A stretch of DNA of 64,000 nt from a virus (lineage: Duplodnaviria > Caudoviricetes), in the IMG/VR virus record IMGVR_UViG_3300015608_005401, positions 1-64,000 of that record, one strand, 5' to 3'. Under the pieces are notes generated by a model, which did not search any database, was not told where the DNA came from, and was given only the letters and a program-made list of their open reading frames with translations. Made by a program: the position numbers and the translations under genes. This document shows positions 48,415-53,841 of this stretch, piece after piece (positions within the stretch are counted from its first letter, which is position 1; each line of letters starts with the position of its first letter).

Positions 48415-48513
48415 ATGAGAACAAATCGCACACATAAACATTTTAGTAAATCGAATAAGTGGTTTAGAAACCAGTTCGGTACTGAAAGTGTATTGCTCTC
48501 AAATAAGATGTAA
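48415..48513 (+). CDS. Putative leader peptide (His/Phe/Trp) of a tRNA operon
   Basis: MRTNRTHKHFSKSNKWFRNQFGTESVLLSNKM*; TATATTTG at 48350 and TTAATATATA at 48399; terminator follows. Confidence 0.65.
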   Translation: MRTNRTHKHFSKSNKWFRNQFGTESVLLSNKM

Positions 48514-48542
48514 CAAATCTATATTTATACAAGACAATATTC

Positions 48543-48580
48543 AAAGTCCGAACTTAAAAAAAGTTCGGACTTTTTTGTTT
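48543..48580 (+). terminator. Intrinsic terminator (putative attenuator) before tRNA-His
   Basis: AAAGTCCGAACTT-aaaaa-AAGTTCGGACTTT-tttgttt. Confidence 0.85.
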
Positions 48581-48585
48581 TATAT

Positions 48586-48671
48586 GGTGTCGTTAGTGTC
48601 AGCGGTGAGTCTTCGGACGAGCATATGGCTCTGTGAAAGCCAAGGGACGGGTTCAAATCCCGTACGACACC
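48586..48671 (+). tRNA. tRNA-His(GUG) with an extra UUCG hairpin in the D-loop
   Basis: G-1 8-bp acceptor GGTGTCGT/ACGACACC; TGGCT-CTGTGAA-AGCCA; GGGTTCAAATCCC. Confidence 0.85.
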
Positions 48672-48729
48672 CCTTGATTTTTTTTGACTTTTGATTTTAA
48701 TATATAAAGAAATCAAAAGTCAAAAAAAA

Positions 48730-49371
48730 ATGAAAAAAGAAAAAGTAAGGTATTACTTCTTATATAAGACTACCAATAAAATGAATGGTAAATTTTATAT
48801 AGGAGTACATAGTACAATAAAAATGAATGATGGGTATTTAGGATCCGGTAAAAGACTTAGATACTCGATGAGAAAATATGGAAAGGAGAATTTTGAAATA
48901 GATATATTAGAATTTTTCAATAGTAGAGAACTTATGTTTGAAGCTGAGAGAAACCTTGTTAATACTGATTTAATTAAAAATGAATTATGTATGAATTTAA
49001 AAGAAGGTGGTATTGGTGGGTGGACAAAAGAACAACAAATAGAGAATGCTAATAGATCTAATATTAAAAAGAAAGAATTGAGAGATAATAATCCAGAATG
49101 GAGAGGGCTTGAAAAGATAAGAAATTCAGAAAATATGAGAAAATCATATGAGAGAGGAGATAGAGAAAAAAAGCAACCTATGGATTGGACTGGTAAAAGA
49201 CATAAAAGGGAGACTATTCAGAAAATGAAAAAATCCAAAAATGTTGGTAAATTAAACTCTCAATATGGTACAAAGTGGATTAATAAAGATGGTATTATTA
49301 AAAAAATAAAAGAAAATGAACTTGAATATTATCTGAACAATGGATGGATTCAAGGTAGAAAAGGAACCTAA
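48730..49371 (+). CDS. GIY-YIG (Seg-like) homing endonuclease with NUMOD3; stop codon lies inside tRNA-Phe
   Basis: FLYKTTNKMNGKFYIGVH, DGYLGSG, MNLKEGG, GKRHKRETIQKM. Confidence 0.88.
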   Translation: MKKEKVRYYFLYKTTNKMNGKFYIGVHSTIKMNDGYLGSGKRLRYSMRKYGKENFEIDILEFFNSRELMFEAERNLVNTDLIKNELCMNLKEGGIGGWTKEQQIENANRSNIKKKELRDNNPEWRGLEKIRNSENMRKSYERGDREKKQPMDWTGKRHKRETIQKMKKSKNVGKLNSQYGTKWINKDGIIKKIKENELEYYLNNGWIQGRKGT

Positions 49372-49528: not shown

Positions 49529-49598
49529 GAGGGGATAACATAATGGTAGTGTACCGGGCGGAAAACCGGTAGTGTTAGTTCGATTCTAGCTCCCTTCA
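49529..49598 (+). tRNA. Atypical tRNA, probably Phe(GAA)
   Basis: GAGGGGA/TCCCTTC acceptor, TACCGG-GCGGAAAA-CCGGTA with a non-canonical 8-nt loop, GTTAG-TTCGATT-CTAGC. Confidence 0.55.
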
Positions 49599-49606
49599 CT
49601 ACAAAT

Positions 49607-49911: not shown

Positions 49912-50580
49912 ATGAAAATTTTAGATAACCTTGATATATCTGATATTCAGAGAAAACTGAATGAGTCTAAATCATTTAGAGAGTTTCTATTAAAAATAGG
50001 ATCTTCATCTAATGGGTCTGGTTCATACAAATCTATTAAGAATCAATTAATTAAATTAGGAGTTATAATTCCTGAGTTTAATTATGAGAATAAAAATAAA
50101 ATTAGTAAAAAAATTGATGATGTTGATGTTTTTATAAAAGGTTCTTTTTATAGTAGACAAAGATTAAAAGAAAGAATTATTAAAAATAAACTAATTGATT
50201 ACAGATGTGAGGAATGTGGAAATGATGGCGATTGGAATGGTAAAAATCTAAGCTTACATCTTGAACACAAAAATGGAGTTAATGATGATAATAGATTAGA
50301 AAATCTAACATTCTTATGTCCAAATTGTCACTCACAGACCGAAACTTATAGTGGTAAAAATAGGAAGAAAAAAGAAAAAAGAAAGTGTGAGTGTGGTAGA
50401 GAAATATTCAAAACAAGTAAAATGTGTTTAGATTGTAACTCTATAAAAAATAGAAAAGTTGAAAGACCGTCAATTGAAAAACTAAAAGAAGAAGTTGTTG
50501 AGTTTGGATATAAAGCTATTGGTAGAAAGTATGGTGTTAGTGATAACACAATTAGAAAATGGATTAAAATAAAAAAGTAA
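49912..50580 (+). CDS. HNH homing endonuclease with C-terminal HTH
   Basis: CEEC...LHLEHKNGVNDDNRLENLTFLCPNCHSQT; GRKYGVSDNTIRKW. Confidence 0.92.
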   Translation: MKILDNLDISDIQRKLNESKSFREFLLKIGSSSNGSGSYKSIKNQLIKLGVIIPEFNYENKNKISKKIDDVDVFIKGSFYSRQRLKERIIKNKLIDYRCEECGNDGDWNGKNLSLHLEHKNGVNDDNRLENLTFLCPNCHSQTETYSGKNRKKKEKRKCECGREIFKTSKMCLDCNSIKNRKVERPSIEKLKEEVVEFGYKAIGRKYGVSDNTIRKWIKIKK

Positions 50581-50596
50581 AAATTAGATTAAGAAA

Positions 50597-50626
50597 ATGA
50601 AAAGTAAGTTGAAATATAAACGCTAG
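50597..50626 (+). CDS. Possible Lys-rich leader peptide before three tRNA-Lys
   Basis: MKSKLKYKR*, immediately followed by GGCAACGACC/GGTCGTTGCC 10-bp hairpin (50626-50655). Confidence 0.4.
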   Translation: MKSKLKYKR

Positions 50627-50667
50627 GCAACGACCAATTGAGAGGGGTCGTTGCCATTAAAAACAAT

Positions 50668-50982: not shown

Positions 50983-51966
50983 ATGTGTAAATGTGAATTT
51001 TGTAATAAAGAGTTTAGTGGATCTTCTTATTCACAAAATAGAAGCTTGAAAAGACATCTAATACACTGTAGACACAATCCTGATAGATTAGAATATTCAT
51101 GTAAATATTGTGGTAGGATAGAAGAGACTTGTAGTAAAATCGCAGTGCATACTTCAAATTGTAAAGATAACCCAAACTACGAATCTATTAGATTATCTAA
51201 AGTAAATAGTGGTAAAAAACCAAGAAAACATACAGAAGAGACTAAAAAGAAAATAAGTGAGATACGAAAGAAGTATTTATCTGAAAATCCAGATAAAGTT
51301 CCTTATAAACTCAATCACAGTAGTAAAGAATCTTATCCAGAAAAATACTTCACTGAAGTATTTAAAAATGAGGGAATCGATGTTGTTAAGTCCTTTTATA
51401 TGGGACTTTATGAACTAGATTTTTGTATACCTGATAAGAAGATAGATATAGAAATTGATGGTAGTCAACACTACTATGATGAAAAGATAGTTGAAAGTGA
51501 CAAAAGAAGAAATAAATTCTTAGAAGATAACGGTTGGGTTATTATCAGAATAAATTGGTCTGAATATCAAAAACTGAATTTTGATAAAAAGAGTGAATAT
51601 GTTACAAATTTGAAAAACTATATTAATAATTTAATAGATGTTAAACCATTTTTTGAAATTACTATTGAAGAGAAAAAAGTTAAAGAAAGAAAACATCAAG
51701 TTAGTAGAAAAAATACCAAGAGAAATAAAAAGGAATATTTATGTAAACAATGTGGTGTTAAATGCACTTGGTCTAAAGATAGATGTGAACCATGTTATAG
51801 ATTAGATAGTAGGAAAGTGGAAAGACCATCTTTAGAACAATTAGAAGAAGATATTAAAAGTCTAGGATATTCCGGAACAGGTAGAAAATATGGTGTTAGT
51901 GACAATTCTATTAGAAAATGGATAAAAAAATCGAGTACCCCGCAAAAATTAATATATAGTTCATGA
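50983..51966 (+). CDS. Vsr/DUF559-like (EDxHD-type) endonuclease with Zn fingers and C-terminal HTH
   Basis: ESYPEKYF, YELDFCIPDKKIDIEIDGSQHY, DKRRNKFLEDNGWVIIRI; GRKYGVSDNSIRKW. Confidence 0.85.
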   Translation: MCKCEFCNKEFSGSSYSQNRSLKRHLIHCRHNPDRLEYSCKYCGRIEETCSKIAVHTSNCKDNPNYESIRLSKVNSGKKPRKHTEETKKKISEIRKKYLSENPDKVPYKLNHSSKESYPEKYFTEVFKNEGIDVVKSFYMGLYELDFCIPDKKIDIEIDGSQHYYDEKIVESDKRRNKFLEDNGWVIIRINWSEYQKLNFDKKSEYVTNLKNYINNLIDVKPFFEITIEEKKVKERKHQVSRKNTKRNKKEYLCKQCGVKCTWSKDRCEPCYRLDSRKVERPSLEQLEEDIKSLGYSGTGRKYGVSDNSIRKWIKKSSTPQKLIYSS

Positions 51967-52709
51967 GGTACTTAAAAGAGTATAAGAACTTTGAAGATTT
52001 TAAGTTTTATCTATTTGGATCAGAGGACTCAAGTGACTATGATGTTTTAGTTGCAGTTGATGATATACCACAAGATATAGATAAGGCACATAATATCTGC
52101 AAATACTATAATGATTTGCTATCAAAGGTATTAACTGATAAAGATTTGAATTGTAACTTAGGTATTTTCAAAGATGGGCATCTTGTTAAAGTATTTAAGG
52201 GAACTATTGATGAATTAAATAATGTTATTTTTTATACATATGATAATCATAAACAATTTTTTCCAAACCCAATAACCTCACCTGTAGTGAGAGATGTTGA
52301 TGAAAAAATATTAAGAGTTGCTAGATTTATTATAACATTTTATTCTAGAACTCAATTAAGACCTCAGATAAAATCAGCACTTAGAGGTGATTTGAAAGAA
52401 AAACTAGAAGTTTTAAAGAAAATTGACTTTGTTAAAATGGTTGATTTTCCAGGGAAAAAAGAAAGATTAGAAGACATTTATAAGGTTTTAGCCTTTCAAT
52501 TTGGTCAAGTATTCTCTCTGATTGATGGACATGAAGAGGACTCTTATACTAAGAATGGTATTATAAAGAATTATATGGATCTATCTAACCTATTGAAAAG
52601 AGGTAAGGTATCTAATATAGATTTAGAAGTATTAAATAAATATTTAGATAGATTTACTAAATTAGTAGAAACTAGAATAAAAGAAGGAATAAAACTTGTA
52701 GAGAATTAA
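51963..52709 (+). CDS. Pol-beta-like nucleotidyltransferase with MRYLKEYKNFE N-terminus
   Basis: LFGSEDSSDYDVLV (GS-x-D-x-D) motif. Confidence 0.65.
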   Translation: MRYLKEYKNFEDFKFYLFGSEDSSDYDVLVAVDDIPQDIDKAHNICKYYNDLLSKVLTDKDLNCNLGIFKDGHLVKVFKGTIDELNNVIFYTYDNHKQFFPNPITSPVVRDVDEKILRVARFIITFYSRTQLRPQIKSALRGDLKEKLEVLKKIDFVKMVDFPGKKERLEDIYKVLAFQFGQVFSLIDGHEEDSYTKNGIIKNYMDLSNLLKRGKVSNIDLEVLNKYLDRFTKLVETRIKEGIKLVEN

Positions 52710-52779
52710 AAGATATTTTTTGATTTTAATATATAAATAAAAGATGTTAAAAGATGCTGAGGATTTAGTATAAAAAAAA

Positions 52780-52811
52780 TTTGGCAAATTAAATAAAAGT
52801 ACCTAAATTTG
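52780..52811 (+). promoter_or_regulatory. Bacteroidota-type promoter of the Arg/Ser tRNA operon
   Basis: TTTG (52780-52783), 20 nt, TAAATTTG (52804-52811); TTAATATATA also at 52832. Confidence 0.7.
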
Positions 52812-52846
52812 TAGAAACAAAGAGAAAAAAATTAATATATAAAGAT

Positions 52847-52921
52847 ATGAAAACTATTAAGATTACATCGTCAAGTTCAAGTCGCTCGTCAAAAACGAGT
52901 GAGGTTCGATCGTATTCATAA
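52847..52921 (+). CDS. Putative Ser/Arg leader peptide of a tRNA operon
   Basis: MKTIKITSSSSSRSSKTSEVRSYS*; 10 of 24 residues Ser. Confidence 0.75.
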   Translation: MKTIKITSSSSSRSSKTSEVRSYS

Positions 52922-52945
52922 TAGTCGTATAATAAGATATTTGTG

Positions 52946-52984
52946 AAACCCTCGAACTTCAAGTTTGAGGGTTTTTTGTTTTAA
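52946..52984 (+). terminator. Intrinsic terminator (putative attenuator) before tRNA-Arg
   Basis: AAACCCTCGAAC-ttcaa-GTTTGAGGGTTT-tttgtttt. Confidence 0.85.
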
Positions 52985-52987
52985 TAT

Positions 52988-53060
52988 GGTTCCATCGTTC
53001 AACTGGACAGGACACTCCGCTACGAACGGAGAAATGAGGGTTCGAATCCTTCTGGAACTA
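52988..53060 (+). tRNA. tRNA-Arg(ACG)
   Basis: GGTTCCA/TGGAACT; CTCCG-CTACGAA-CGGAG; GAGGGTTCGAATCCTTC. Confidence 0.92.
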
Positions 53061-53065
53061 CAAAT

Positions 53066-53149
53066 GGAGAAGTAACTTAGCCGGCGCTAAGCACAGTCTT
53101 GAAAACTGCTGGTACCTTCGGGTATGGGGATCGACACCTCACTTCTCCG
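53066..53149 (+). tRNA. tRNA-Ser(UGA)
   Basis: GGAGAAG/CTTCTCC; CAGT-CTTGAAA-ACTG; variable arm TACC-TTCG-GGTA. Confidence 0.85.
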
Positions 53150-53154
53150 CAACT

Positions 53155-53237
53155 GGAAGTGGCCCGAATGGACGAGGAACTTGTCTTGAAAACAAGCGGC
53201 TGTAAAAGGTTTGGGGGTTCGATTCCCTTCGCTTCCG
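53155..53237 (+). tRNA. tRNA-Ser(UGA)
   Basis: GGAAG/CTTCC acceptor; CTTGT-CTTGAAA-ACAAG; GGGGGTTCGATTCCC. Confidence 0.88.
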
Positions 53238-53335
53238 CAAAATAGAATACTGGCAAAGTCCTGGCTGGACTGGTTCGAATCCATAAGCCATCAGCTAACC
53301 ACTGATAAAGATTGGTAATCTTTGTATTCTTATTT

Positions 53336-53421
53336 GGAGAGTAAAGTAGCCAGGGTGCTACCACCGCCTGCTAAGCGAGTGGCACGGTAAAACGTGTGAG
53401 TTTCGAATACTCTGCTCTCCG
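53336..53421 (+). tRNA. tRNA-Ser(GCU)
   Basis: GGAGAG/CTCTCC; CGC-CTGCTAA-GCG; variable arm CACG-GTAAAA-CGTG. Confidence 0.85.
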
Positions 53422-53427
53422 CTAATT

Positions 53428-53513
53428 GGAGAGTAATCTAATCGGGGTATTAGCCACGCCTGGAAAGCGTTGGGTGCGTTCATTCGCATGTGGTTCGAGT
53501 CCACTGCTCTCCG
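53428..53513 (+). tRNA. tRNA-Ser(GGA)
   Basis: GGAGAG/CTCTCC; ACGC-CTGGAAA-GCGT; GTGGTTCGAGTCCAC. Confidence 0.88.
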
Positions 53514-53529
53514 CAAAAAGAATAAAAAT

Positions 53530-53841
53530 ATGGAAGCAATTTATACAAGATTCTCAAGAAGAGAAACTACATTTGAAAACACTTTAGCTCTGTTACAAGA
53601 ACTATTGAATGAAAGACTATTACCTGGTTATAGAAGAATTTGGGTACAAGCTTCTAATTCTGGTAGAACAAGATTTTGTTTTACTGTTTTTCCAGAAAGA
53701 GGTCAATATATTATGAGATTTTATGATTCTGGTTCATTTAGACAATTTAGAACCAATGGTGATTTAGATGTCGAAATCGATTTAATTGAGAGATTTATTG
53801 ATACTTTATCAGACGATATTTTATCTGAATACATTGTTTAA
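53530..53841 (+). CDS. Hypothetical protein (start re-called at MEAIYTRF)
   Basis: The longer track ORF begins inside tRNA-Ser. Confidence 0.65.
   Translation: MEAIYTRFSRRETTFENTLALLQELLNERLLPGYRRIWVQASNSGRTRFCFTVFPERGQYIMRFYDSGSFRQFRTNGDLDVEIDLIERFIDTLSDDILSEYIV

Follow-up and report, generated by a model that had tools for sequence, protein, structure and literature searches.

A candidate leader-peptide attenuator in front of the arginine and serine tRNA genes of a phage contig

The Ser/Arg leader unit of the phage contig analysed here (52847..53514, plus strand), which lies before Arg and Ser tRNA genes, appears to be a transcription attenuator of the ribosome-mediated, leader-peptide type, and the genes it would regulate are the very tRNAs by which the codons of the leader are read; judged from sequence and comparison, this reading is given a probability of about 0.75. 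The anatomy of the unit, its conservation, its covariation and the match between leader codons and downstream tRNAs are direct observations, and from them we infer that the ORF is translated, that the hairpin terminates transcription, that the switch responds to stalling and what the physiological signal is. The phage probably makes its Arg and Ser tRNAs only when ribosomes read the corresponding codons slowly. A sequence-only reading of the same DNA had already proposed an attenuator at this place, and comparison supports that interpretation: the ORF and its Ser bias recur in 44 of 44 homologous units, the alternative pairing covaries, and other tRNA arrays have codon-matched leaders of their own.

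The window, meaning the whole stretch of 64,000 nucleotides to which the coordinates refer, covers the first 64 kb of a phage contig that is 74,685 bp long (30% G+C), and its closest records in the phage collection are two unannotated genomes of uncultured phages, LR745206.1 (634,780 bp) and LR756502.1 (642,428 bp). The huge-phage paper (PMC7162821) lists genomes of 634 and 642 kb among the largest of phages and places them in the Mahaphage clade, for which Bacteroidetes hosts are predicted. The TAnnTTTG promoter-like boxes in the window are consistent with a Bacteroidetes host. Three ORFs with homing-endonuclease-type domains lie between tRNA genes of the window (48730-49371, 49912-50580 and 50983-51966), their domains being GIY-YIG (weak, 20.5 bits), HNH and REase_MTES_1575/DUF559; they interrupt an array that is unbroken in relatives, where His, Phe, Trp and Lys tRNAs lead directly into the Ser/Arg leader.

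The leader ORF (52847..52924, plus strand) consists of 24 codons followed by the tandem stops TAA TAG, the ORF itself spanning 52847-52921 and the second in-frame stop 52922-52924. Its composition is as the sequence-only reading had described it: ten Ser codons (TCG three times, TCA four times and AGT three times) and two Arg codons (CGC and CGA), which together make up 12 of 23 leader codons, where the long ORFs of the same phage would predict 2.7 (binomial p ~10^-5.6). The putative regulatory run, assigned by codon reading, occupies codons 8-15 (52868..52891, plus strand) and contains five Ser codons, Arg (CGC) and two further Ser codons. In the long ORFs of the phage, AGA accounts for 81%, CGC for 0.9% and CGA for 3.5% of Arg codons, and TCG for 3.2% of Ser codons. 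Both CGC and CGA can be read by tRNA-Arg(ACG) after editing of A34 to inosine. Because these two codons lie inside the P1 hairpin and the antiterminator described below, their match to tRNA-Arg(ACG) is inseparable from structural constraint, and little weight is given to it. The T-loop-like sequence GGTTCGA in segment 2 (see below) was considered as a trace of a pseudo-tRNA; this idea was rejected, as the reading frame is conserved and neither ARAGORN nor Rfam supports a tRNA there, with the exception of one overlapping call among many spurious ones at relaxed ARAGORN settings.

All five tRNA genes that had been read downstream of the terminator, one for tRNA-Arg(ACG), two for Ser(UGA) and one each for Ser(GCU) and Ser(GGA), were located on the plus strand with ARAGORN at default or relaxed settings and with Rfam. 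The gene for tRNA-Arg(ACG) (52988..53061; ARAGORN, and 55.1 bits in Rfam) starts 3 nt after the terminator T-run, which leaves no room between hairpin and tRNA for a promoter of the kind that would count against attenuation. The next gene, for a non-canonical tRNA-Ser(UGA) (53066..53150), was found by relaxed ARAGORN and by the Rfam tRNA-Sec model at 43.8 bits with a cut-off of 47, and sequence homologous to it is visible in two of the homologous loci (L001 and L002). It is followed by a second tRNA-Ser(UGA) (53154..53238; default ARAGORN, 31.4 bits in Rfam), by tRNA-Ser(GCU) (53336..53422; relaxed ARAGORN only), whose homologue is a default-threshold call in L003 and scores at or near the default threshold in 12 other homologous units, and by tRNA-Ser(GGA) (53428..53514; default ARAGORN, 42.1 bits with the tRNA-Sec model). 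Default ARAGORN thus calls two of the four tRNA-Ser genes, and the other two need relaxed settings or the Rfam tRNA-Sec model. Between two of the tRNA-Ser genes lies a structured element (53245-53331) that is closed by a 7-bp stem (AGAATAC/GTATTCT) and contains a T-loop-like GGTTCGAATCC; it is not called as a tRNA by ARAGORN or by Rfam, and L002 carries a different hairpin element at a similar place (1724-1795).

Transcription of the unit may start from either of two kinds of upstream site. A promoter had been proposed before the ORF, and a promoter-like site is present there by consensus match only: a Bacteroidota-type site (TTTG, 20 nt, TAAATTTG) can be read from the sequence at 52780..52811 (plus strand), and a sigma-70 scan of the same interval gives TTGGCA-17-TAAATT with 9 of 12 positions matching. 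The TAnnTTTG box is common to the upstream regions of other leaders on the contig. The motif TAATATATAA at 52833..52842 (plus strand), absent from the sequence-only reading, lies 14 nt before the leader ATG and may act as a promoter or in translation start. In the contig-wide motif search, (TTT)TAATATATAA occurs in 15 copies (for example, at window positions 2379, 48400, 48698, 49887, 50956, 52727, 52833 and 60689), 14 of which have an ATG 12-34 nt downstream; some of these ATGs are the starts of long ORFs, and two copies precede leaders A and B. The motif is probably a phage-specific promoter, and at leaders the host-type TAnnTTTG box sits about 30 nt further upstream of it. Another copy (52727) is followed at a distance of 17 nt by a 9-codon ORF (52743-52772), shortly before the host-type promoter box that precedes the Ser/Arg leader. 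A promoter within the conserved GATATTTGTG before the hairpin was also considered and was rejected, since its TTTG varies among homologues and the stretch is the outer part of the antiterminator.

The ORF is followed by a predicted intrinsic terminator (52945..52984, plus strand), in which a 14-pair hairpin (52945-52975) leads into a T-run that extends to 52984; this matches the strong terminator that had been placed at 52946-52984. Four further elements were delimited on the same strand. A hairpin within the ORF, P1 (CGCTCGT, loop CAAAA, ACGAGTG; 52883..52901), possibly serves as a pause hairpin. Segment 1 (52853..52870) is a predicted anti-antiterminator, which in RNAfold of the leader alone forms a long-range helix with 52907-52925 around P1. 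Segment 2 (52901..52921), which comprises codons 19-25 including the stop codon, is the 5′ strand of the antiterminator. Segment 3 (52941..52960), delimited by RNAfold and covariation, contains the 5′ arm and loop of the terminator and is common to antiterminator and terminator. Folding of the leader alternatives, which the sequence-only reading had suggested as a check, yields P1 plus an extended antiterminator (52901-52921 with 52941-52960) when the transcript is cut at 52961, and the terminator when the transcript is complete. The three RNAfold states, that of the leader alone included, are mutually exclusive, as in classical attenuators. The 9-bp pairing that had been noticed between leader and terminator, GAGGTTCGA (52901-52909) with TCGAACTTC (52952-52960) and one G-U pair, is present in the structure cut at 52961, and only its extent needs revision, because the predicted antiterminator is longer. 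The duplex of leader and terminator arm has an energy of -13.8 kcal/mol, compared with -7.4 +/- 1.8 for shuffled leaders, none of 300 of which reach this value (z = -3.5), and the leader as a whole folds with z = -4.9. The upstream helix 52853-52870/52907-52925 would complete the 1:2, 2:3, 3:4 set of pairings; across homologues it is 79% paired, with zero compensatory changes and thus without covariation support.

The effect of a ribosome on these structures was simulated by masking 27 nt around each A-site codon and folding at equilibrium, in 19 units of five classes. As long as the A site of the stalled ribosome is no further along than about codon 16, the terminator arm is left paired to the leader and the antiterminator can form; when the ribosome is beyond about codon 16 or at the stop codon, this pairing is reduced or blocked in most units. 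The run of cognate codons ends at the codon-16 boundary in this set. In the unit of the window itself, some terminator-arm pairing (7 nt) persists with the ribosome simulated at the stop codon. Equilibrium folding favours the antiterminator (2:3) even without a ribosome; therefore, unlike in trp, the untranslated state may read through, unless the 1:2 helix is kinetically trapped.

The Ser/Arg class is widespread, with 44 distinct copies in viral and metagenome contig collections, ocean-survey contigs among them. These homologous units were collected by pattern scans of both kinds of collection, and the final pattern placed no constraint on the antiterminator strand or on the 5′ half of the ORF; of the 30 loci given by a first, looser DNA pattern, 21 were recognised on inspection as chance matches and removed. 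Homologous regions lacking the ORF or its Ser bias would argue against attenuation, and both features are present in all 44 units. The frame from ATG to TAA is kept in 44 of 44, at lengths of 24, 25, 26 or 34 codons and with indels of whole codons, and the other two frames are open in none of them. Ser makes up 38% of the leader codons of the 44 units, and the Ser run varies in sequence and length among homologues yet remains Ser; codon 15 even changes between the Ser boxes TCN and AGY (TCA to AGT) with its P1 base pair kept. The 34-codon leaders, found in the metagenome contigs L044, L064 and L094, arose by an in-frame internal duplication of the Ser-rich part.

Conservation extends to the RNA helices, so that start and stop, Ser content and covarying terminator and antiterminator, which had been named as features to look for in related phages, are found together. 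Across nine homologues P1 is 95% paired, and two of its seven pairs change on both sides. In the core of the antiterminator, a GC pair changes to AU in three of nine sequences; among 42 units, an A at this leader position is always matched by T in the terminator arm (six leaders), and G is found opposite either C or T, which makes the pairing a GC/GU/AU series. The terminator is present in 42 of 44 units, the remaining two being one unit that is cut off and one with an interrupted T-run. The peptide itself has a conserved core, S-R-S-S, and a conserved tail, K/R-x-S-E-V/I-R-x-Y/C-S. Because this tail overlaps the RNA helices and the third codon positions are invariant there, constraint at the RNA level is indicated. 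In 39 of the 40 units with enough downstream DNA, tRNAs follow within 700 nt, with calls for Arg(ACG) (39), Ser (54), Arg(TCG) (one) and two of uncertain identity; tRNA-Arg(ACG) is the first tRNA past the terminator in 37 of the 40. The units of L004 and L006 are embedded in longer arrays, with tRNA genes before them, and that of L004 has no promoter-like box before its ATG; a unit in such a position can act as an internal gate.

The Ser/Arg unit is one of a family. A scan was made for tRNAs with a terminator within the 200 nt ahead of them and a short ORF whose end lies close before that terminator. Together with unit A, which was added because default ARAGORN misses its first tRNA, it gives five leader units on the contig; the 634-kb relative LR745206.1 has seven. 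Sister unit A (48415..48584, plus strand) has a 32-codon His/Lys/Phe/Trp leader (48415-48513) and a terminator (48543-48573 plus T-run), which are followed by His, Phe, Trp and Lys tRNAs; its homologues are found in L034 and L035. Three more units complete the set on the contig: Glu and Tyr tRNAs are headed by a Tyr/Glu leader, Ile(UAU), Ala and Gly tRNAs by an Ile/Gly/Ala leader, and Asn and Ile tRNAs by a leader rich in Asn. For an out-of-sample test, additional regions of the two large relatives (LR745206.1 and LR756502.1) were examined. There the Asn/Thr/Met/Leu/Val/Ile leader heads an array of 20 tRNAs (Asn, Arg, Leu, Val, Ile, Thr and Met), a Pro/Gln/Asp leader precedes Pro and Asp tRNAs, and three or four tRNA-Gln genes stand behind a leader that contains a run of Gln codons. 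When every leader was scored against every array by binomial enrichment, the true pairing was the single best of 120 permutations on the contig, of 5040 in LR745206.1 and of 720 in LR756502.1. The geometry is shared as well: the pairing segment had been noticed just downstream of the Ser run, and in every one of 19 units, drawn from five classes, the terminator 5′ arm finds its best partner within leader codons 17-26, just after the run of cognate codons. Where the terminator differs between genomes, the leader segment differs along with it (for example, in class A, between L035 and the window).

At 50598-50656, directly before three tRNA-Lys genes, a 9-codon ORF that includes four Lys codons leads into a G+C-rich hairpin of 10 bp; the mini-ORF (50598-50627) was rejected as an attenuator, because its hairpin has no T-run and the Lys tRNAs of relatives simply continue array A. 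This locus could be a degenerate or different kind of gate that arose after endonuclease insertion. Between Phe and His tRNAs lies a tRNA (49529-49599; 48.5 bits in Rfam) in which ARAGORN reads a four-base anticodon (ggaa), and which may be a degenerate Phe tRNA or a frameshift-type tRNA. Several genes right behind terminators are over-long or odd tRNAs (window 48586-48673; L033 2693-2786 and 3446-3535, that is, contig 66693-66786 and 67446-67535), including a His(GUG) of about 86 nt, a probable 90-nt Ile(UAU) containing a long insertion, and a 94-nt element that has an acceptor-like stem and was identified by none of the tools used.

In the proposed mechanism, transcription would start upstream of 52847, from the host-type promoter, the phage-specific promoter or both, and a ribosome would translate the 24-codon leader while the polymerase advances. 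With ample charged tRNA-Ser and tRNA-Arg(ACG), the ribosome would reach the tandem stops and cover segment 2 (52901-52921); segment 3 would then pair with segment 4, the 14-bp terminator would form, and transcription would end 3 nt before tRNA-Arg. If Ser or CGN codons were decoded slowly, the ribosome would stall in codons 8-15 and leave segment 2 free to pair with segment 3 (52941-52960), the terminator would not form, and the polymerase would read through into tRNA-Arg and the four tRNA-Ser genes. Such output would raise exactly the limiting tRNAs and constitute a negative feedback on tRNA supply, although extra tRNA would be of no help if the amino acid, and not the tRNA, were short. The Ser/Arg unit would then be one module of a set (at least five on the contig and seven in the 634-kb relative), each tuned to its own array.

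It is conceivable, but unlikely, that the same switch responds to another signal, such as general translation capacity, amino-acid starvation or the stage of infection (e.g., through ribosome-polymerase coupling), and not to shortage of specific tRNAs. In equilibrium folding the antiterminator forms whenever segment 2 is uncovered, so a general loss of translation would also open the gate, and the two types of promoter upstream suggest control by infection stage. A signal of this kind leaves unexplained, however, why five to seven leaders match their own arrays in codon content (the true pairing being the best of 5040) and why the tRNAs after the leader are essentially Arg and Ser only in 39 of 40 units. 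The match of composition across classes also remains unexplained if the hairpin is a constitutive terminator or insulator that ends upstream transcription, the tRNAs being made by fixed leakage and the peptide, encoded by a conserved small gene, having a function of its own. Terminators ahead of tRNA genes need not be regulated, and both core and tail of the peptide are conserved. The tail coincides with RNA helices and invariant third positions, however, the antiterminator pairing is conserved and covaries, and the L004 and L006 units stand inside longer tRNA arrays, that of L004 without a promoter-like box before its ATG, all of which makes this explanation quite improbable.

A switch that works without ribosomes, in which the leader RNA binds uncharged tRNA in the manner of a T-box, or a protein, and in which the codon run is an untranslated binding site, appears highly improbable. 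The leader does fold well (z = -4.9) and possesses a conserved hairpin. Against this stand the features of a translated frame, namely the ATG, the in-frame stop, the whole-codon indels and the switches from Ser box to Ser box kept in the 44 units, as well as the many different cognate codons, which in class E represent up to seven amino acids, unlike a single specifier; a search of Rfam returned zero T-box matches even at E <= 10. All three of these explanations fail to cover both the conserved frame and the codon match that is seen in class after class.

Why phages carry tRNA genes and how these are used is an open question, and to our knowledge there is essentially no account of how phage tRNA arrays are regulated. 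The literature searched, a limited set that includes the huge-phage paper (PMC7162821), yielded no report of tRNA genes under the control of a leader peptide. If the attenuator reading is true, the Ser/Arg unit extends a known attenuation mechanism to a new class of regulated gene, with direct feedback by the product. Such a phage would gauge decoding speed for each codon family and top up only those tRNAs that limit translation. With somewhat better than an even chance, the giant phages of Mahaphage type run a genome-wide tRNA homeostat, in which nearly every array is gated by its own codon-matched leader and made on demand, and which would be the first leader-peptide attenuation system where the sensed tRNA is the regulated product. 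In such a homeostat, decoding might slow once the phage has degraded host tRNAs, under attack by host anticodon nucleases, or where the AT-rich codon usage of the phage and the host tRNA pool do not match. A codon-matched attenuator offers a testable link between phage tRNAs, codon usage and host defences that target tRNA, and, if the reading holds, the leaders would provide synthetic biology with compact, modular sensors of individual tRNA pools.

The unit was compared with known regulatory leaders. In Rfam, no family reaches its threshold on the leader; the nearest is His_leader (RF00514), which aligns along the entire model (positions 1-126) with 26 bits and E = 0.066, the cut-off being 49 bits, a below-threshold score that reflects resemblance of architecture only, and PyrR, rnk and Phe_leader score below it. 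T-box riboswitches need no ribosome: with a specifier codon and the T-box bulge they bind uncharged tRNA themselves. The phage unit resembles them in that genes of the translation apparatus would be placed under a choice between terminator and antiterminator set by the state of the cognate tRNA, and differs from them in having a conserved ORF and no T-box match, Rfam giving none at E <= 10 within 52700-53600 and none at the gathering score in the window as a whole. The upstream motif of this ORF is identical to that before some long ORFs of the phage.

The leaders trpL, hisL, pheL and leuL are leader-peptide attenuators of amino-acid operons, and thrL and the ilv leaders are multivalent. The phage unit shares with trp, his, thr and ilv leaders a short leader ORF, a regulatory codon run and an intrinsic terminator whose 5′ arm can pair instead with the 3′ part of the ORF; as in leaders of the trp and his type, its stop codon lies within segment 2, and, like thrL, which senses Thr and Ile, it would sense several amino acids, here Ser and Arg, with a single leader. 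The pheM leader of the E. coli pheST operon, where leader-peptide attenuation governs phenylalanyl-tRNA synthetase, is similar in that attenuation acts on the translation apparatus and not on a biosynthetic pathway; there, however, the charging enzyme is regulated, whereas here it would be the tRNA arrays themselves, in a phage. Unlike the attenuators of amino-acid operons, the phage units are carried by a virus, number five to seven modules per genome and precede tRNA genes instead of genes for biosynthetic enzymes, and because tRNA genes would be the regulated genes, the sensed molecule and the product would be the same species.
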